DNA from: Escherichia phage S143_2
Reading direction: 5' to 3' (one strand)
Length of the DNA stretch: 64,000 nt
Sequence record: MZ189261.1
Shown here in pieces: positions 4,719 to 62,791 of the stretch. Under the pieces are notes generated by a model that saw nothing but the letters and a program-made list of their open reading frames with translations, was not told where the DNA came from and ran no database searches. Position 1 is the stretch's first letter; the number at the start of each line of letters is the position of its first letter. Position numbers and translations under genes: made by a program.

Positions 4719-4748
4719 ATGGGAGACTTCGGTCTCCCATTTTTGGTT
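4719..4748 (+). terminator. Rho-independent terminator after gene 23 (GGGAGAC-UUCG-GUCUCCC + U tract)
   Basis: Perfect 7-bp GC-rich stem with UUCG tetraloop followed by TTTTGGTTTT. Confidence 0.7.
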
Positions 4749-26230: not shown

Positions 26231-26848
26231 CTACTTAACGAAATTAATTTCTACCGGATGAACAACAGGTTGAGCAGTGATATATTGGGTAATTGCTTTC
26301 AAGACTAGAGCTTCAGACCCAGGATTTTTCTCAACGAATTCACGTGCTTGGTTATGAGCTTCAAGTTCACTTAGTAAACCACTTCGTTGGCATCCACGGT
26401 CTTGAGTACCCTGTTCAGATAAAAAGACGACGATGTATTTTTCATCATCGTCATACGGTTTAGACGGTTGAGCAAATGTTCCTTTACTTCCAAAAGGAGA
26501 GTTATGACGCCACATCACGCCGTGAGGAGTTTCAACCTTCGTATATTCGTGCGGGCCGTTTTTCTTAGTTTCTTGATGTGGAACTTTGTAGACCTTAGGG
26601 TTAGGACATTCAATAAAATGCTCATCTAAATCGGTCGAGAATATTAAAGTAAAACAATTACTAAATTTACCAACACCCGCCTGATAAATTTTACCTTCAG
26701 AAGTTCTAATTTCACAAACTGAGCCGGCATCAGTAACTTCTAAAACTTCAAAAGGCTCGATAAGGTCATATGAGAACATGTTTTTAAGGCGTGGAGTAAT
26801 ATCCCCATTTTTAAAATTCATTTTATAAAAAGTATTAACTTTAAACAT
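26231..26848 (-). CDS. Hypothetical protein, 205 aa
   Basis: Long ORF; GC-hairpin (GGGAGC-UUCG-GCUCCC) immediately 5' of its RBS. Confidence 0.5.
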   Translation of the reverse strand: MFKVNTFYKMNFKNGDITPRLKNMFSYDLIEPFEVLEVTDAGSVCEIRTSEGKIYQAGVGKFSNCFTLIFSTDLDEHFIECPNPKVYKVPHQETKKNGPHEYTKVETPHGVMWRHNSPFGSKGTFAQPSKPYDDDEKYIVVFLSEQGTQDRGCQRSGLLSELEAHNQAREFVEKNPGSEALVLKAITQYITAQPVVHPVEINFVK

Positions 26849-26883
26849 AATTTCCTCAGTGGGAGCCGAAGCTCCCAGTTAAA

Positions 26884-27249
26884 TTAGATGTCGAATTCGT
26901 TAAGAACTACATCAAAGATTGCTTCGAGATGTTCAGGTTTAGCTCGGTTGCTCAGGATATGACGAATCCAAGTTTTAACCAGAAGTTTACGATTAACACC
27001 GTTCCAGCAAGGATGAGTACCTAAATCACGTTGACGGAAATCGTCATCTAATGCAATTTTGAAGTTAGAACCTTCCATCGTGATTGAAACCGTGATGCCA
27101 TTTTCAAATCGCATATAAACGTAATTAGGAGTCATATACTGCTCAATTTCGCATACTGAACCGTTATTATGCTTCCATAAGCAAATTGTATCGATAGAAC
27201 CAGCAATACCGTTAGAAACATATTTACGTTCGAAGTTGATGTAGTTCAT
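26884..27249 (-). CDS. Hypothetical protein, 121 aa
   Basis: ORF with own early promoter and RBS GGAGAAT. Confidence 0.55.
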   Translation of the reverse strand: MNYINFERKYVSNGIAGSIDTICLWKHNNGSVCEIEQYMTPNYVYMRFENGITVSITMEGSNFKIALDDDFRQRDLGTHPCWNGVNRKLLVKTWIRHILSNRAKPEHLEAIFDVVLNEFDI

Positions 27250-27290
27250 TTTATTCTCCAGATGTTTAAGTTGTTTGTTGGTACAGGTCT

Positions 27291-27319
27291 ATAATAACAA
27301 AACCTGTACCAAAGTAAAC
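27291..27319 (-). promoter_or_regulatory. Early promoter (GTTTAC / TATTAT)
   Basis: Upstream of ORF 26884..27249; -10 lies inside 8-bp inverted repeat GGTACAGG/CCTGTACC. Confidence 0.5.
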
Positions 27320-27323
27320 ATTT

Positions 27324-27695
27324 TTATTTGATTTTTGTCCACTTAGCTGAATCAATAACACCTTTTGCTTTAATCTTCTCGATTAATGCCTCTGCACGAT
27401 TTCTGGCATTTTCGTACCATACAACATCTTCAGAGTAACCAGTCTCTTCATCTTCGTAAGTTTTAGAACGAATACAACCATAAACTGTAGAATTCAGACG
27501 GTAAATTTCACCAGTGAAAAAGTTTTCGATTTCGATATGATAACAAAAATCGTCTGAAGGGCCATCAGGAGTTGTACAATAAACTACATCACCTTGAACT
27601 GAACGAACCATCCACTGTAACTCGTTAACAACTTGAGATTTATATCCATCATGGTCACGGCATTTAATTGTAGCATTTAAATTGATAGTGTTCAT
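27324..27695 (-). CDS. Hypothetical protein, 123 aa
   Basis: ORF with own early promoter and the same leader/RBS module as 26884..27249. Confidence 0.55.
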   Translation of the reverse strand: MNTINLNATIKCRDHDGYKSQVVNELQWMVRSVQGDVVYCTTPDGPSDDFCYHIEIENFFTGEIYRLNSTVYGCIRSKTYEDEETGYSEDVVWYENARNRAEALIEKIKAKGVIDSAKWTKIK

Positions 27696-27737
27696 TTTAT
27701 TCTCCGGTTGTTTTTATTGATTAGGTGGTACAAGTCT

Positions 27738-27766
27738 ATAGTAACACATCCTACAGGAGAGTAAAC
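27738..27766 (-). promoter_or_regulatory. Early promoter (GTTTAC / TACTAT)
   Basis: Upstream of ORF 27324..27695; shares leader module with 27291..27319. Confidence 0.5.
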
Positions 27767-27796
27767 ATCTTTTTTTAAACTTTTTCTGCCCTAAAC

Positions 27797-27822
27797 GCAC
27801 AAAAGGGAGACCGAAGTCTCCC
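27797..27822 (-). terminator. Terminator (GGGAGAC-UUCG-GUCUCCC + U4) upstream of rIII region
   Basis: Same 18-nt hairpin as at 4721, 42910, 51229; U tract follows on - strand. Confidence 0.55.
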
Positions 27823-28170: not shown

Positions 28171-28419
28171 TTATTTCAAAGTAATAACAAAATGACGAAC
28201 TGCTTTACGTGCTGCAGAAGCCAGAGGCTTAGCATATTTCAATTCATCTTTCTGGACCAGGATATCGCGAAGATCGGCTTGTGCTGGATTCAGATGTTTG
28301 AAATACTGTAAGATTTCAAGAGCTTCGGCTTCAACATCAATAGATGCGCCGTAATTGTCATGGCCATTATTCCATGCATGGCGTTGCAGTTCAAGAGCGT
28401 GTTGTAATTGTTTAATCAT
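28171..28419 (-). CDS. rIII: rIII lysis-inhibition accessory protein
   Basis: 82 aa (T4 rIII 82 aa) immediately before gene 31 as in T4. Confidence 0.65.
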   Translation of the reverse strand: MIKQLQHALELQRHAWNNGHDNYGASIDVEAEALEILQYFKHLNPAQADLRDILVQKDELKYAKPLASAARKAVRHFVITLK

Positions 28420-29242: not shown

Positions 29243-29813
29243 AAAAGTTTCGGATTTGTTCCCAATTCAGAGAACGAAGATTATTACGAGAGTACTGAAT
29301 TACTTCAATACCGGCTTGTTTTAGAATGTCTGCCCAATTTTCAGGAGATCTGTCATATAATTCTGCGTATACAACCTTTTTAATACCTGACTGCGTAATA
29401 GCTTTAGTGCAATCAGGACATGGAGAAAGCGTCGTATATAACGTAGCACCTTCAATAGAATTACCTTTACGAGCTGCAAACAAAATTGCATTCAATTCTG
29501 CATGGATTTCATTATTAGCAGACCATGCACTATGAGCGGCCCGATGTTCTTTAGCCAAAACAAAATTATCTGCCCGTCCAAATGCTGTAGTGCCTTCTTT
29601 ATGTCCAGCAACGATGACCGGACTTGGTTTATTCTTCAACCAACCGTTTTCGGATGCATGTTCGCAACAGTTTGTACCACCTGAAGGAGAGCCATTATAA
29701 CCTGTAGAAATAATGCGTCCATCTTTTTCAATGACTGCGCCAACTTTCCATGAACAACATTTTGATTCTTGAGAAATCAGATATGCAATCTGAAGGTATG
29801 TGCTAGCTTTCAT
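29232..29813 (-). CDS. cd: dCMP deaminase
   Basis: 193 aa (T4 Cd 193 aa); zinc-deaminase motifs HAE and PCxxC (SPCPDC). Confidence 0.9.
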   Translation of the reverse strand: MKASTYLQIAYLISQESKCCSWKVGAVIEKDGRIISTGYNGSPSGGTNCCEHASENGWLKNKPSPVIVAGHKEGTTAFGRADNFVLAKEHRAAHSAWSANNEIHAELNAILFAARKGNSIEGATLYTTLSPCPDCTKAITQSGIKKVVYAELYDRSPENWADILKQAGIEVIQYSRNNLRSLNWEQIRNFCGE

Positions 29814-30805
29814 TATTGAACCTTATTAATATAAGTTAACAGCTCTTTAGTTTGTTCCCAACTGATGCACGCATCGGTAATGGAAACGCCATAGGACATA
29901 TTATCAGAAATTTTTTGATTTCCTTCATGTAGGAATGATTCTATCATAATTCCTTTGACCAAATCATTAGCTGCTAAATTTTTACCAATACCAATTTGAT
30001 TGCTATAATACCCATCAGCGTTTGCGTGGCTACAGTCAACCATTACATAATGATTCAGACCTAATGCACTTGCTTTGTTAGAAGCTTCTTGAATATCAGA
30101 AGAATGATAGTTCGGGCCGTTAGTCCCGCCACGCAATACGATATGCGTATTCTGATTACCTTCAGCTTCAACAATGCCTACAGTACCATCGACGTCCATA
30201 CCCATATACCGATGAGGCCAGGCGGCACTATACATCGCGTCTGTAGCTACTTTAATAGAACCATTGGTTGCGTTCTTGAAGCCTACGCACATCGGTAGAC
30301 CTGAAGCAATTTCACGATGTGTCTGACTTTCAGTCGTACGGGCGCCAATAGCAACCCATGAGAAAATACCAGAAAGATACTTAATCGTGAATGGGTCTAA
30401 TACTTCAGTTGCTAATGGAAGTCCCATACGTAGAAGTTTACGACACAATGTTCGTGCAACTATAAGACCGTGGTTCATATCAAAACTTCCGTCAAGATAT
30501 GGATCATTTACAAGACCTTTCCAACCTACGGTAGTTCGAGGCTTTTCAAAATAAACGCGCATCACTAACAGAACATTAGGAAGACGAGTTTGAAGTTCAG
30601 CCAGACGTTTGCCGTATTCAACAGCAGCAATAGGGTCATGAATTGAACAAGGACCTACAACAATAAGTTTGCGTGGGTCTTCACCGTTCATAATCGAATT
30701 AACTTGTTCGCGATGAGAAGCCACTTGTGATGCGTAAGCTTCCGACAAAGGAATAATCTCAGCCAGTTCTTTTGGAGAAATAAGTTTTCTGACGACAGGT
30801 AACAT
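29813..30805 (-). CDS. 3-deoxy-D-arabino-heptulosonate-7-phosphate (DAHP) synthase, class I (AroG/AroF/AroH-like)
   Basis: 330 aa; conserved blocks VVGPCSIHD, MRVYFEKPRTTVGWKG, AIGARTTESQ, GFKN, IVLRGG, DCSHAN, ESFLHEGNQ, SITDACI colinear with E. coli AroG; stop overlaps cd start (TAATG). Confidence 0.85.
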   Translation of the reverse strand: MLPVVRKLISPKELAEIIPLSEAYASQVASHREQVNSIMNGEDPRKLIVVGPCSIHDPIAAVEYGKRLAELQTRLPNVLLVMRVYFEKPRTTVGWKGLVNDPYLDGSFDMNHGLIVARTLCRKLLRMGLPLATEVLDPFTIKYLSGIFSWVAIGARTTESQTHREIASGLPMCVGFKNATNGSIKVATDAMYSAAWPHRYMGMDVDGTVGIVEAEGNQNTHIVLRGGTNGPNYHSSDIQEASNKASALGLNHYVMVDCSHANADGYYSNQIGIGKNLAANDLVKGIMIESFLHEGNQKISDNMSYGVSITDACISWEQTKELLTYINKVQ

Positions 30806-35905: not shown

Positions 35906-35935
35906 ATTGTACCACAATCCTTGTGGCATGTAAAC
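35906..35935 (-). promoter_or_regulatory. Early promoter (GTTTAC / TACAAT)
   Basis: Upstream of rnlA ATG at 35879. Confidence 0.45.
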
Positions 35936-41851: not shown

Positions 41852-42100
41852 TTATTTCCTCAGATTTTTCTTAACAACTTTCCAATCAGCTTTAAACTGA
41901 TCGACGTCAGAATGATAAATCCAGAATCCTGCACTTTCACCATCTTCGTAGAGTGGACATCCATCACATTCTTCGTTCCAACCCATTTCTCGTAAAGCTT
42001 CTTCAGCTTGTTCAAGGAGTTCAGCGTCTTTACCGACGATGTTGAAGTACCATTTACCTCTAACTTCCGAATCTTTGATGCTCTGGCGTTGCAATCTCAT
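41852..42100 (-). CDS. Hypothetical protein, 82 aa
   Basis: ORF with RBS GGAGAAT and early promoter at 42136..42165. Confidence 0.5.
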   Translation of the reverse strand: MRLQRQSIKDSEVRGKWYFNIVGKDAELLEQAEEALREMGWNEECDGCPLYEDGESAGFWIYHSDVDQFKADWKVVKKNLRK

Positions 42101-42135
42101 TTTATTCTCCGCTTCACTTTTGATTTGATAGGGCT

Positions 42136-42165
42136 ACTATAACATAGCCCTATCTTGTTATAAAC
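42136..42165 (-). promoter_or_regulatory. Early promoter (GTTTAT / TATAGT) with perfect 10-bp inverted repeat around -10
   Basis: Arms GATAGGGCTA (42127..42136) and TAGCCCTATC (42145..42154); upstream of ORF 41852..42100. Confidence 0.5.
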
Positions 42166-42557
42166 TACTTTTTAAAAGTTTTTTGCAAAAGTTCAATGAC
42201 TTCGTCGACGTTGGTTTCATCTACAATACAATGTATTTTTGTTACACCTAAAGCTATACCTTTGTTAGTAGGTTGAGGCTTTACTAAATCTACCTCAGTA
42301 AAGTATTTGAACTCGTTAGGATAAATCTCAAAATAAGTTTCAATTTCACCACCAGCAGAACATACCGTACCATCTTCCATAGTTACACTTACTACGTTTG
42401 ACGTATCGCTATCATAATCAGGTTCCATTCCGTTTACAACAAAACTAGGCCCGTGGAGTTCAATCAATTTTAACATCTTAGCGTTATTGTGTGGTGCTTC
42501 TTGAACAAAGTCGTCTTTAAACAAAGGGTTAATGATATAAGATTTTCCGATTTCCAT
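42165..42557 (-). CDS. Hypothetical protein, 130 aa
   Basis: Start at internal ATG 42557 with RBS GAGGAAAT; avoids overlap with upstream ORF. Confidence 0.45.
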   Translation of the reverse strand: MEIGKSYIINPLFKDDFVQEAPHNNAKMLKLIELHGPSFVVNGMEPDYDSDTSNVVSVTMEDGTVCSAGGEIETYFEIYPNEFKYFTEVDLVKPQPTNKGIALGVTKIHCIVDETNVDEVIELLQKTFKK

Positions 42558-46211: not shown

Positions 46212-49200
46212 ATGGCCGACATCAAACGTAAGTTCAGAGCCGAAGACGGTCTGGACGCCGGTGGCGACAAGATTGTTAACGTAGCATTAGCCGACCGTAC
46301 AGTAGGTACTGATGGCGTAAACGTTGACTTCCTGGTACAAGAAAACACCGTTCAAGTATATGATTCTACGCGTGGATATAACAAAGGATTTGTTGTTCTT
46401 TATGACAACCGTTTATATCAAGCAATAAATGATATCGTGTCTCCTTCCGGGGCATTTAACCTTTTACAATGGCGTACAGTTCGCACCGATGCACAATGGA
46501 TAACTGTCGCTTCTGGGACTTATCAACTTTCTTCAGGTGAATCGATTTCGGTTAACACTGGCGCCGGCAATGATATGGTTTTCACGTTGCCAAATGCGCC
46601 GGTTGATGGTGATACTGTTGTTTTGGCTGATATTGGTGGAAGAACCGGGACAGTTAAAGTACAGATTAACGCGTCTGTGCAGAGTATTTTAAACTTTAGA
46701 GGTGAACAAGTTCGTACAGTTTTAATGACGCGACCACGTTCACAACTAGTGTTTGTGTTTAGTAATCGTTTGTGGCAGATGTATATCATTGATTACGGTA
46801 AAGAATCAATCACTGTTACACCTGCGGCACCATATCAAGCACAAGCAAATGATTTTATCGTTCGTCGTTTTACTAGTGCAGCACCAATCAACATTACACT
46901 TCCACGTAATGCTAACAATGGTGATATAATCAGCCTAGTCGATTTAGATAAATTAAACCCACTGTATCATACAATTGTTAAAACATTTGATGATACAACG
47001 TCTATTGGTGAAGTCGGGACTCATACTGCCGAAGGCAGAAATGACTCTGACGCGTTTTTTGTTTTTGATGCTGCAAATAGTTTATGGCGTATATGGGAAG
47101 GCGACCAGAAATCGCGTCTTCGTATTATCCGTGCGGATTCAAATATTCGTCCAAATGAAGAAGTTCTTATTTTTGGCACAAATAACGCTGCAACCGGAAC
47201 TATTAATCTTACGCTGCCTACCGGAATTTTGAGTGGTGACACTGTTAAAATTTCAATGAACTACATGCGTAAAGGCCAAACAGTAAAAATTAAAGCTGCC
47301 GAAGGTGATACAATTGCTTCTTCTGTTGCGTTGCTTCAGTTCCCTAAACGTTCTGAATATCCACCTGATGCTCAATGGGTCTCTGTTACTGAACTAGAAT
47401 TCAATGGCACTACTTCATATGTTCCTGTATTAGAATTATCGTATATCGAAGACACCGTTGCTGGTACACGTTATTGGGTTGTGCAACAGAATGTCCCTAC
47501 GATAGAACGTGTTGATGCTGGAACTGATGCTACACGAGCTCGTTTAGGTGTTATTGCTCTTGCAACTCAGGCACAGGCAAACGTTGATTTTGAAAATTCT
47601 CCGGCTAAAGAAGTTGCTATTACTCCTGAAACGTTGGCAAATCGTACAGCAACTGAAGCTCGACGTGGTATCGCTAAAATTGCTACAACAGCACAAGTTA
47701 ACCAGAATTCCACAGCATCATTTGTGGACGATACTATTGTTACGCCTAAAAAACTAAATGAGCGTACAGCAACTGAAACTCGTCGCGGTCTTGCTGAAAT
47801 TGCTACTCAGGCTGAAACCGATGCTGGTCTTGATGACACAACGATTATTACGCCTAAGAAATTACAGGCACGTCAGGGTTCCGAAACACTATCGGGTATA
47901 GTTAAATATGTATCGACTACTTCTGCTATTCCTGCTGAAACTCGTGGTGCCGCAGGCACTAACGTTTATAATAAAACCGTAAATAATTTAACTATTTCTC
48001 CTAAAGCCCTTGACCAATATAAAGCAACTTATGCTCAACAAGGTGCAGTAATTTTAGCTATTGATAGTGAAGTAATTGCTGGACAATCTCAGTCTGGATA
48101 CTCTCACGCTGTAGTAACTCCTGAAACACTACATAAGAAAACTTCTACTGATGGACGTATTGGTTTAATTGAAATTGCTACGCAAGCAGAAACTAATGCT
48201 GGGACTGATTATACACGTGCAGTAACGCCTAAGACGTTAAATGATAGGAGAGCGACGGAAGGATTATCCGGCATAGCCGAAATTGCTACGCAAGTTGAAT
48301 TTGATACTGGAACTGATGATACTCGTATCTCGACTCCACTGAAAATTAAAACTCATTTTGATTCTTCTGACCGTACCAGTGTTAATTCTGATTCCGGACT
48401 TATTGAAGAAGGAACCTTGTGGAACCATTATACTCTTGATATTTCTAAAGCAAATGAAACACAACGTGGTACACTTCGCGTAGCGACCCAGGCAGAATCT
48501 AATGCAGGAACTTTAGACGATGTTCTTATTACTCCTAAAAAGCTTTTAGGGACTAAGTCCACTGAAACGTCTGAAGGCGTAATTAAGGTTGCTACTCAGG
48601 CTGAAACTGTAACAGGAACTTCTGCTAATACTGCTGTATCTCCTAAGAATTTAAAATGGATTGTGCAGAGTGAACCAACATGGGCTGCTACTACGGTGAT
48701 AAGAGGTTTTGTTAAAACTTCATCTGGTTCAATTACATTCGTTGGTAATGATACAGTCGGTTCTACACAGAACTTAGAGCTATACGAGAAAAATAGCTAT
48801 GCAGTATCACCGTATGAATTAAACCGTGTATTAGCAAATTACTTGCCATTAAAAGCAAAAGCTGCTGACACGAATTTATTGGATGGTCTAGATTCATCTC
48901 AGTTCATTCGTAGGGACATTGCACAGACGGTTAATGGTTCACTAACCTTAACCCAACAAACGAATCTGAGTGCCCCTCTTGTATCATCTAGTACTGCTAC
49001 GTTTGGTGGTTCTTTAGCTGCTAATTCTACATTTACTATTCGTAATACAGGTGCTTCAACTCGTTTGATATTTGAAAAGGGACCACAAACTGGAAATAAC
49101 CCGTTTCAAACCATGAATATCCGAGTATGGGGTAACCAATTCGCTGGTGGTTCTGATACAAGTCGTTCTACGATATTTGAAGTTGGTGATGAAACGTCTA

Positions 49201-51228: not shown

Positions 51229-51252
51229 GGGAGACTTCGGTCTCCCATTTTT
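51229..51252 (+). terminator. Terminator after gene 35
   Basis: GGGAGAC-UUCG-GUCUCCC followed by ATTTTT. Confidence 0.65.
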
Positions 51253-51253
51253 G

Positions 51254-61453: not shown

Positions 61454-61654
61454 TTATTCGGCTATATCAGAACGTTCAAAAAGCTCTTCAACAGTTAAAC
61501 ATTCAGTGTCGTCTTCAATAAAGAATCGAGTCCAACACGTTGGGGCGATACAGTTATGAGTTTGTCCGGCGATAGAAGCTACACGAATAAGCTGCTGACC
61601 GTTATTCAGAACAAATTTTTCACCAATTTCAACATCTTTAAAAAGCTTAGCCAT
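61454..61654 (-). CDS. Hypothetical protein, 66 aa
   Basis: ORF with RBS GAGGAA and early promoter at 61683..61712. Confidence 0.5.
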   Translation of the reverse strand: MAKLFKDVEIGEKFVLNNGQQLIRVASIAGQTHNCIAPTCWTRFFIEDDTECLTVEELFERSDIAE

Positions 61655-61682
61655 TTTGTGTTCCTCATGTTTAAGTAGGACT

Positions 61683-61712
61683 ACTATACCATAATCCTAC
61701 CTTGATGTAAAC
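61683..61712 (-). promoter_or_regulatory. Early promoter (GTTTAC / TATAGT)
   Basis: Upstream of ORF 61454..61654; 6-bp arms GTAGGA/TCCTAC flank -10. Confidence 0.45.
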
Positions 61713-61901
61713 AATTAAATTACATTAAAATATGTTAAAGCCAACCATGTTCCAGTGAACGAACATGCGATGTAAAAACCAGTATCACAAATTGTTCTTA
61801 GTACAATAAGTGCATTTTTCATAAGTACCTCAATGCAATTGAAAATATTATACAAATCATAGGGATACTAAGCAACCATATTCCGATCCACATTTTAGAG
61901 C

Positions 61902-62165
61902 TCATATCTCAACTTCCGCGAGCTCCATATATCCTTTGTTGATAACATCTTTAAGGTCTTTAGAAAGAATAACACTAAAATGGTCATTCATATGTCCATT
62001 AACCAGACGAGTTATTTCGGCTTCAGATGACATATAAGGCACATCTGAGTCCCAATGAGATAGGCCCAAATGGGTATAAATCATCCCTTCATCATCTGCA
62101 GTGTTGTACATTGAAACAAATTCGCCTGTTACTTTGTGTTTTGCGTAGAAAAATTTAAATTTCAT
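61902..62165 (-). CDS. Hypothetical protein, 87 aa
   Basis: ORF with RBS AGAGGA and early promoter at 62192..62221. Confidence 0.5.
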   Translation of the reverse strand: MKFKFFYAKHKVTGEFVSMYNTADDEGMIYTHLGLSHWDSDVPYMSSEAEITRLVNGHMNDHFSVILSKDLKDVINKGYMELAEVEI

Positions 62166-62191
62166 GATGTTATCCTCTTTTAGATAGGACT

Positions 62192-62221
62192 ACTATATCA
62201 TAGTCCTACTTAGTTGTAAAC
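62192..62221 (-). promoter_or_regulatory. Early promoter (GTTTAC / TATAGT)
   Basis: Upstream of ORF 61902..62165; 7-bp arms TAGGACT/AGTCCTA flank -10. Confidence 0.45.
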
Positions 62222-62233
62222 ACTTTTATGAAA

Positions 62234-62791
62234 TTAAAGTTGAAGATACCACCCGTTGTAGTTGCTCTTGCGGACGATTTTCTTTAGGTCTTCATGGTCT
62301 CCCACGAACTTTATAGAATAAGAGAAGACGTCAGGTGAGGTTTCTTTGACATCTAATATAATAATGCAATCTGCGACTCGATGGTTCAAGAAGGGCCCTA
62401 TATTGATTCCATTACCACCCGGATAATCACCACTGTATCCTGTGGTAACCGAAATCCATTTAGAATCTATCTGGTGTGTCTTGACTTCTACACGAATTCC
62501 ACAATACTTGGGATGGGCTAACACGTCCCATGCATACGTGTACGGGTCTTCTACGTCTTCAATACCTTTATTAACATATCCGTCTAGCCAATTTGCTACT
62601 ACATACTCTGCAAAGACCGCAACCTTACAACGTCGAACTACGTCTTCTTTGTTTTGGCCAGGATTTTGGCTCAGGGAATACCGAGCAGTGTCAGCAATCT
62701 TCACCTTCATTTCACTAGTCAAAAACTCATTCGACAGGATAAATGTCGGAAGACTCTTCAGTCTCAACAATCCCAAGTTCGTCTTTACCAT
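62234..62791 (-). CDS. denB: Probable endonuclease IV (DenB); start uncertain
   Basis: Start at ATG 62791 (RBS GAGGT) gives 185 aa, the T4 DenB length; position before rIIB fits T4; sequence identity not verified. Confidence 0.45.
   Translation of the reverse strand: MVKTNLGLLRLKSLPTFILSNEFLTSEMKVKIADTARYSLSQNPGQNKEDVVRRCKVAVFAEYVVANWLDGYVNKGIEDVEDPYTYAWDVLAHPKYCGIRVEVKTHQIDSKWISVTTGYSGDYPGGNGINIGPFLNHRVADCIIILDVKETSPDVFSYSIKFVGDHEDLKKIVRKSNYNGWYLQL

Follow-up and report, generated by a model that had tools for sequence, protein, structure and literature searches.

Neighbouring early-promoter cassettes around gene 30.8 of Escherichia phage S143_2 and their probable role in recombination

Why are two adjacent small genes of a T-even phage, whose products are dissimilar, each preceded by a similar promoter, leader and start region? 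The question is raised by the open reading frames (ORFs) at 27324..27695 and 26884..27249 of a 64,000-nucleotide stretch of Escherichia phage S143_2 (MZ189261.1; the whole stretch is called the window here and positions are counted from its first letter), for which a preliminary description made from the letters alone had proposed a duplicated promoter-leader-start module. Judged by their sequence, the two ORFs are genes 30.8 and 30.7 of a Mosigvirus-like T-even phage. We consider it probable, at roughly 85%, that the two modules are neighbouring regulatory cassettes of the promoter-early stem-loop (PeSL) type, which constitute the early promoters and translation-initiation regions of 30.8 and 30.7 and also serve as recombination patches. 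PeSLs have been described as 'mobile regulatory cassettes' of T4-type phages (Arbiol et al. 2010, PMC2839356; Comeau et al. 2014, PMC4122927), and the feature is an instance of this published mechanism and no new kind of element.

The elements on which the argument turns are given below (SD, Shine-Dalgarno sequence; aa, amino acids). All lie on the minus strand, which carries every gene here (cd, a WYL_2 ORF, gene 31, rIII, 30.9, 30.8 and 30.7).

27696..27780, minus strand: module 2 (P30.8), with −35 GTTTAC at 27761-27766, TGT and −10 TACTAT at 27738-27746, and SD GGAG at 27702-27705
27250..27323, minus strand: module 1 (P30.7), with −35 GTTTAC at 27314-27319, TGT and −10 TATTAT at 27291-27299, and SD GGAG at 27256-27259
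27324..27695, minus strand: gene 30.8, 123 aa (PF06019, E = 3e-74), the exchangeable cargo between the modules
26884..27249, minus strand: gene 30.7, 121 aa (PF06919, E = 2e-52), downstream of module 1 and highly conserved
27249..27259 (module 1) and 27695..27705 (module 2), minus strand: GGAGAATAAAA, the SD together with a perfect match to the RegB/S1 strong-site consensus, from a consensus search
27278..27312, minus strand: predicted stem-loop with the −10 hexamer in its loop, TTGGTACAGGT (27302-27312) pairing with ACCTGTACCAA (27278-27288)
27801..27822, minus strand: terminator after 30.9 (hairpin 27805-27822), GGGAGAC-UUCG-GUCUCCC then UUUU, the upstream stem-loop of module 2

Anatomy and similarity of the two modules

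Both modules follow the same plan, in which an A-rich tract, GTTTACT, a 17-nt spacer, TGT-TA(Y)TAT, AGACYTGTACCA (AGAC(C/T)TGTACCA), an A-rich leader and GGAGAATAAAATGAAC succeed one another, and both end with GGAGAATAAAATG; the leaders are about 30-35 nt long and the SD GGAG stands 6 nt before the ATG. The strings quoted in the preliminary description are in place (CATTTTATTCTCC at 27247-27259 and 27693-27705, GGTACA.GTCTATA.TAACA at 27280-27299 and 27727-27746, GTAAACA at 27314-27320 and 27761-27767), and the early promoter, ribosome-binding site and start codon that it had claimed for each cassette are found as a predicted promoter GTTTAC-17 nt-TGn-TAYTAT, the SD and the ATG. Module 1 directly follows the 30.8 stop codon (TAA 27324-27326) and reads TAA-AAA-T-GTTTAC; a promoter scan calls it as TTTACT-16-TATTAT with TG, and in the GenBank record of SA79RD a T4-type early promoter with an overlapping hairpin is annotated at the site orthologous to P30.7. 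From T4 through JS98, VR20 and SA79RD to the window, both the P30.7 module and the dyad in it are conserved. Module 2, whose −10 hexamer TACTAT occupies 27738-27743 (the TATTAT of module 1 occupies 27291-27296), has an A-rich tract upstream and reads AGAAAAAGTTTAAAAAAAGAT-GTTTAC, which begins 61 nt after the stop codon of 30.9, and shares 91-96% identity with the orthologous module of other Mosigviruses. The terminator after 30.9 lies about 35 nt before the −35 of module 2; in an RNA fold it reaches −14.1 kcal/mol (z = −3.7; 0 of 200 shuffles as stable), and the SA79RD and PhAPEC2 records annotate the site as a terminator. The coding part of the module is, on present comparisons, weak: the shared MN.IN start is real here (MNYIN and MNTIN), but across genera the 30.7 and 30.8 families have only M1 and N5 in common.

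Aligned on the coding strand, modules 1 and 2 are identical in 70 of 91 columns (76.9%); the identity is 72% between −35 and −10 and also in the leader, and rises to 88% between the SD and codon 5. Their normalised score of 0.49 far exceeds a mononucleotide-shuffle null (−0.07 ± 0.05, maximum 0.14); the relevant null, however, is not random sequence but the window's own early promoters, of which 14 minus-strand modules, each followed by SD and ATG, were compared in 91 pairs.

5049, 20379, 27291, 27738, 31191, 33317, 34723, 35906, 42136, 42850, 46141, 59116, 61683 and 62192, minus strand: early promoters of the window

Over the whole module, the 27291/27738 pair ranks first of the 91 (0.49 against a mean of 0.11, sd 0.10, z = 3.8), and the module pairs separated by less than 1 kb take ranks 1, 2 and 29 (permutation p = 0.006). 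The similarity is above the generic T4 early-promoter consensus, yet it is an upper-tail value and not a separate class. Within the window, the motif TATAGACYTGTACCA is found solely at modules 1 and 2, and the longest exact run common to the two is the 16-nt GGAGAATAAAATGAAC.

How much of this resemblance is owed to function alone? The 13-mer GGAGAATAAAATG has exactly three copies, all on the minus strand and each directly before an ORF (27247, 27693 and 42098; 0.2 expected allowing one mismatch). The third belongs to the following module.

42098..42175, minus strand: third module, with −35 GTTTAT at 42160-42165, −10 TATAGT at 42136-42141 and GGAGAATAAAATG before ORF 41852..42100 (DUF5417)

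In the third module, a dyad, GATAGGGCT/AGCCCTATC, encloses the −10 (−18.7 kcal/mol in the fold, z = −6.6). The strong RegB/S1 cleavage consensus in T4 early mRNAs is GG*AGRAYARAA (Uzan and Miller 2010, PMC3014915), and the window has three exact GGAGRAYARAA sites, at 27249-27259, 27695-27705 and 42100-42110 (0.38 expected), that is, at the same three ORFs to which the preliminary description had pointed; the consensus bases are unpaired in the predicted folds of all three. Like the RegB/S1 sites of T4, GGAGAATAAAA fits the consensus everywhere, lies in an intergenic translation-initiation region of early genes and is predicted to be unpaired; cleavage is known for the T4 mRNAs and is predicted here. 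The regB gene of the RB69 group has diverged (review, PMC3014915). Because the 13-mer equals this consensus, its sharing is best explained by function (SD plus putative RegB target) and not as a recombination scar or by common descent. The ribosome-binding module thus does recur before ORF 41852..42100, as had been noted, but probably through functional constraint and not through ancestry.

Read as regulatory elements, the cassettes would each make their small gene an autonomous early transcription unit, the extended −10 (TGn-TAYTAT) being read by the sigma-70 RNA polymerase of the host. The SD, doubling as a predicted RegB/S1 site, would probably allow the early messages to be shut off quickly after the early period, and module 2 lies behind a classical terminator.

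These findings would also fit functional convergence only, that is, two strong T4-type early promoters with optimal SD/RegB sites but no shared history or role in recombination. All 14 modules of the window share a long consensus, T4 early promoters have consensus regions beyond the sigma-70 elements (PMC2988021), the 13-mer is the RegB/S1 consensus and stands at an unrelated third gene as well, and in T4 itself P30.7 and P30.8 are not specially alike. Convergence does not readily account for a pair that is the top outlier of 91 and has TATAGACYTGTACCA to itself, and the comparisons with other phages given in the next section speak against it further.

Exchange of the 30.8 ORF and homogenisation of the leaders

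The 3-kb stretch around both ORFs is 92-98% identical to many RB69-group (Mosigvirus) T-even phages, with Shigella phage phi25-307 as the best match, and the orthologues of 30.8 and 30.7 in T4 have the same arrangement. Do related phages differ in the cargo between the modules, as expected if these are sites of exchange? Such differences, which the preliminary description had suggested looking for, are found twice and independently, in Mosigvirus and in Dhakavirus. When the window is compared with SA79RD and AV117 (both Mosigvirus), the features from 30.5 to gene 31 are 91-100% identical except for rIII (86-89%), which has a mosaic patch of its own, and for the 30.8 ORF (66%); against AV117 this ORF is 65.6% identical between flanks of 96-100%. 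The divergent tract covers 27320-27711: it starts where the 30.8 stop codon adjoins the −35 of module 1 and ends shortly before the SD of module 2 is reached on the upstream side. Between the Dhakaviruses JS98 and IME341, both modules are 95-96% identical and the difference consists of the 30.8 ORF plus 3 nt, with 50% identity. The junction of 30.8 and P30.7 is, moreover, an indel hot spot with 0, 1 or 2 ORFs depending on the genus: one extra ORF lies there in Jiaodavirus, Karamvirus and Moonvirus and two in Winklervirus and Kanagawavirus.

The 30.8 alleles fall into three classes that cut across genera. The MKINLNS class occurs in Mosigvirus, Gaprivervirus and one Dhakavirus, and the Dhakavirus JS98 carries the T4 class. 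An allele at least 95% identical to that of the window is present in just 23 records; the next closest come from Serratia (77%), Edwardsiella (69%) and Klebsiella (65%) phages, and those of other Mosigviruses reach 55-57%. By comparison, 708 of 994 records, spread over several genera, have a gp30.7 with protein identity of 90% or more.

It might be argued that 30.8 evolves in situ under fast diversifying selection and that the modules only look like boundaries because they are constrained while the ORF drifts. The gene is indeed highly variable everywhere (819 of 1037 records fall under 60% identity), and conserved regulatory flanks would give sharp identity edges under either model. Against this stand phages that are 96-100% identical on both sides and differ by 34% in nucleotides within 372 bp, allele classes that are discordant with genus, and a window allele that is closer to those of Serratia and Klebsiella phages than to those of other Mosigviruses. 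Since the discordance of allele and genus requires transfer, diversification in place is refuted as the explanation, and we regard it as extremely improbable.

Two candidate junctions were rejected in the course of these comparisons. BLAST breakpoints against T4 and RB68 do not mark a replacement of cargo: the 30.8 protein of the window is a 39%-identical homologue of T4 gp30.8, so that the break against the T4 group reflects divergence and not a different gene. The evidence for replacement comes from comparisons within a genus. A second divergent patch between SA79RD and the window, at 27120-27200 inside 30.7, was considered as the downstream junction; AV117, however, has an identical 30.7 protein but the other 30.8 allele, and the patch is unlinked. 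As an observation in its own right, this patch (codons ~17-43) is mosaic, being T4-like in the window and AV117 and JS98-like in SA79RD. A further mosaic patch of ~70 nt lies in rIII at 28252-28321, where the window and AV117 are sharply different between flanks of 98-100% identity.

The leaders provide a second line of evidence. Within single genomes, the two leaders share 36 consecutive identical nucleotides in JS98, 36 in MP1, 26 in ValMc03 and 21 in Merlin, compared with a cross-genus mean of 9-12. As the leaders differ between genera, this identity within genomes is not conservation. A genome-wide family of leaders was considered for JS98 and rejected, because its 30-nt leader occurs at just these two sites in 50 kb; the restriction to two sites points to local homogenisation of the tandem pair. 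Together, these data indicate that the two leaders exchange sequence within genomes in several lineages, presumably by local gene conversion.

The two halves of P30.8 have different affinities. Its upstream half, from −35 to −10, is orthologous across Mosigvirus, Dhakavirus, Winklervirus and Kanagawavirus, whereas the downstream half tracks the P30.7 of the same genome, including a 3' stem arm that has no partner in P30.8. In module 2 of the window this arm is AGACTTGTACCA at 27726-27737, which repeats the 3' arm of the module 1 stem as an orphan. The pattern resembles the trace of conversion tracts that extend from the −10 to the ATG, and homogenisation forms a gradient from fresh (JS98, MP1) to decayed (window, T4), in which the window is intermediate. 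The term 'duplicated' for the module therefore holds in part: the resemblance in this lineage is there, but the T4 promoters are not specially alike and the orphan half-stem points to conversion. It looks as if the half of P30.8 between the −10 and the ATG had been converted by P30.7-like sequence, and not as if an entire cassette had been duplicated.

The same data bear on functional convergence. Leaders, for which no sequence constraint is known, are identical within the genomes of JS98 and MP1 and different between genera; the partnerless stem arm in module 2 has no obvious function alone; and in two genera the junctions of allele replacement fall at the modules. The 50-kb search of JS98 speaks against a general convergence of the early leaders within one genome. 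Convergence is largely refuted by the within-genome identity of the JS98 and MP1 leaders, and we consider it quite unlikely as the sole explanation.

Could the promoters instead be the best-kept remnant of an ancient tandem duplication of promoter and gene, with 30.7 and 30.8 as paralogues beyond recognition? Both ORFs encode ~120 aa and start with M-N/K-x-I/x-N, and the layout in Jiaodavirus and Karamvirus resembles a twice-repeated unit (module, ~122-aa ORF, hairpin, ~160-aa ORF), the second genes of which are marginally similar (E = 2e-4 and 1e-3). The protein bodies, however, are dissimilar, as the preliminary description had stated: gp30.7 and gp30.8 match with a BLASTP E of 13 and a profile-profile hhalign probability of 0.06% (ten-genome alignments), and they belong to separate families (PF06919 versus PF06019; phrog_1582 versus phrog_1507), so that paralogy by duplication of the whole cassette was rejected at the sequence level. 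Single-sequence AF2 models of both proteins are poor (pLDDT 64.9 for 30.7 and 50.6 for 30.8) and their secondary-structure patterns, at this low confidence, show no obvious correspondence; a BFVD search with the poor 30.7 model returned distant gp30.7-like matches only (TM about 0.3). As the promoters of T4 are not alike, the promoter similarity would also be younger than the genes, and an origin of the pair by such a duplication appears very improbable.

We therefore return to the cassettes as recombination patches. Sequences of ~75-100 nt that are far better conserved than the ORFs they flank would act as patches of homology for phage recombination; during co-infection, the 30.8 ORF would be replaced as a unit by crossovers inside both cassettes, and within one genome the two cassettes would convert one another. 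The proposal that repeated cassettes provide homology for the swapping of genes in this region thus finds support in the replacement of 30.8 in two genera and in the homogenisation of the leaders. Several points weigh against it. The modules of the window share at most 16 consecutive identical bases and 77% overall, which makes them a poor substrate for mutual recombination today. The −35, the TGn/−10 and the SD/RegB motif, which account for a large part of the common sequence, are functionally constrained, and similarity in them is expected without recombination. P30.7 and P30.8 of T4 and of RB32 are no more alike than unrelated early promoters, making the resemblance lineage-specific. Owing to the high flank identity within a genus, only the edges of the heterologous tracts can be placed, and the crossovers do not surely lie inside the modules. 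Finally, the evidence for exchange is comparative and historical and does not come from this genome.

Comparison with known phage cassettes

The promoter consensus of T4/PST PeSLs is TTTACW-N17-TAYWAT, and recombination between neighbouring PeSLs is proposed to excise, insert and replace the intervening ORFs, which inverse PCR demonstrated for RB49/phi1 (PMC2839356, PMC4122927). These papers also refer to older observations on T4 by Repoila et al. 1994. Promoter and terminator/attenuator activity and mini-circles arising from recombination of adjacent cassettes likewise belong to the PeSL definition; at the present locus, the homogenisation of the two leaders within genomes may be an indirect sign of such recombination. 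At the present locus, the promoters read TTTACT-N17-TATTAT (module 1) and TTTACT-N17-TACTAT (module 2), both with TGn. The order of elements is that of a PeSL, with an upstream stop codon in an AT-rich tract, a sigma-70 promoter, a stem-loop over the −10, and SD and ATG, conserved over ~100 bp; a stem-loop over the −10 is one of the two commonest published positions. Module 1 has such a predicted stem, whereas module 2 fits less well, since its stem-loop is a separate terminator ~35 nt before the −35 and none surrounds the −10. The 14 minus-strand modules, mostly before small ORFs, provide the repetition typical of PeSLs. As in the published cases, the genes beside the cassettes are small, have no known function and belong to a variable region, and ORF replacements and indels (30.8 in two genera, 0-2 extra ORFs elsewhere) are bounded by the cassettes. 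Published PeSL crossovers map between the −10 and the ATG (PMC2839356, PMC4122927), with which the upstream junction found here agrees.

The modules likewise resemble the early promoters of T4 (Pe, 'uber' UP/−35/TGn/−10; Hinton 2010, PMC2988021) in having GTTTAC, a 17-nt spacer, TGn with TAnnAT and an A-rich upstream tract; all the parts of such a promoter (−35, TGn, −10 and A/T-rich upstream elements) appear to be present. They share with Pe the conserved positions beyond the sigma-70 elements (PMC2988021) and a location upstream of the prereplicative genes 30.8 and 30.7. No essential difference was noted, and activity of these promoters in S143_2 is likely from their sequence. A more distant parallel is offered by the morons of lambdoid phages (Hendrix et al. 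2000, as presented in PMC2839356), which also consist of one accessory gene with its own promoter and terminator; according to that account, the sequences beside a moron are neither conserved linkers nor believed to mediate exchange, whereas the flanks here are conserved homology.

In the main, the locus serves as confirmation of the PeSL mechanism proposed for the shuffling of accessory early genes in T4-like phages, which was here rediscovered from raw sequence alone. It is an unusually clean natural example, with two independent replacements of one small ORF whose junctions are placed to a few bases, and with runs of 21-36 identical nt, probably left by conversion, that the tandem cassettes of several genera have in common. 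In the text of PMC2839356 and PMC4122927 we found neither the local concerted evolution of a single tandem pair over many genera nor the orphan half-stem. A literature search for experimental T4 data on 30.7 and 30.8 found none, and the 30.9-30.8-30.7 interval would be a convenient test bed for measuring PeSL-mediated exchange.

The stem-loop of P30.7 and the surrounding region

What is the role of the stem-loop that encloses the −10 of P30.7? In module 1, the predicted stem has about 11-13 bp and reaches −20.8 kcal/mol (z = −4.5), with an 11-bp perfect dyad (shuffle p = 0.001); no stem was found around the −10 of module 2 (fold z = +0.32). Relatives were compared by independent folds and shuffle z-scores, the stem registers relative to the −10 being different. 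In T4, JS98, ValMc03, MP1, LC53 and PEi20, P30.7 folds into a stem of 12-14 pairs that places the −10 within the loop or at it (energies between −18.8 and −23.2 kcal/mol, z between −3.9 and −6.8; 0 of 200 shuffles as stable), and the arm sequences among relatives are wholly different: GGTACAGG, GGGTGGT, ACTGAGGTTA, GGTGAGGGTCT and GCTGATTGAGTGT. By the same independent folds, the stem is absent from P30.7 of Merlin and Entb43. Within the T-even clade, three arm substitutions (in T4, RB32 and SA79RD), read by eye, all lead to G.U pairs on the sense strand, and the stem of AV117 has an extra T-T mismatch at the innermost pair. Across the window, a perfect dyad of 6 bp or more encloses the −10 at 5 of the 14 early promoters, compared with 6.9% of random positions.

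In RNA, the module 1 stem-loop would form only in read-through transcripts from upstream. The stem seems to have been kept in at least seven genera with at least four unrelated arm sequences, and partly on this basis we put forward, as a tentative idea and one more likely wrong than right, that the −10-in-loop stem of P30.7 is an independently selected functional element and not a by-product. If this were so, the stem in read-through RNA could shield 30.7 from transcription arriving from upstream, either by attenuation or by protecting 3' ends. Alternatively, as a DNA cruciform, it could be the initiation site of the homogenising recombination, with a direction from P30.7 to P30.8; directional conversion would then leave the orphan half-stems in P30.8 of Mosigvirus, Dhakavirus and Kanagawavirus. 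The conserved stem-loop and the apparently directional conversion are the sole part of the locus that may repay more work.

Some observations were made on similar structures elsewhere. The runner-up among the 91 module pairs, 61683/62192 (rank 2), is also a tandem, 509 bp apart in the region 61654..62238 on the minus strand, and flanks an 87-aa ORF without a Pfam match; in both of its modules the −10 lies in the loop of a dyad (TAGGACT/AGTCCTA and GTAGGA/TCCTAC). The early promoters at 35906, 34723, 20379 and 59116 have a small hairpin inside the spacer instead. In Klebsiella phage ValerieMcCarty03, an annotated 141-aa 'baseplate hub subunit' (1131-1556) starts at a TTG inside the P30.7 promoter, so that 21 codons of promoter and stem-loop sequence are translated at its N-terminus (…YYRPVPP… = TATTATAGACCTGTACCACC); this ORF is almost certainly mis-annotated, the true start being the ATG of MNFTNF.

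Downstream of 30.7, a second UUCG hairpin leads into the next gene.

26861..26876, minus strand: stem-loop GGGAGC-UUCG-GCUCCC after the 30.7 stop, without a U-tract (−13.1 kcal/mol, z = −4.1)
26231..26848, minus strand: 205-aa ORF (phrog_17531), without a Pfam match

Immediately after the hairpin come the SD and ATG of the 205-aa ORF; hairpin and SD form the upstream boundary of this ORF, where there is no promoter module. The 205-aa ORF lies in the place of gene 30.6 (95 aa) of T4, JS98, VR20 and even the Mosigvirus PhAPEC2 and is another cargo difference; at its N-terminus it is marginally similar (E = 0.001) to the extra ORF between 30.8 and 30.7 of a Klebsiella phage. An Rfam search of the locus gave sub-threshold matches only, all to terminator hairpins. 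A 25-mer with a UUCG-loop terminator and T-tract, GGGAGACTTCGGTCTCCCATTTTTG, is present in copies of 100% identity at 4721-4745 and 51229-51253, 46.5 kb apart, and the terminator upstream of module 2 (27805-27822) has the same stem. Further away, the early region includes an auxiliary gene of the aromatic-amino-acid pathway, a 330-aa DAHP synthase (PF00793, E = 2e-74) at 29813..30805 on the minus strand, immediately upstream of the dCMP deaminase gene, and the plus-strand interval 47512-48487 contains several imperfect direct-repeat families of 25-54 nt with 61-88% identity.

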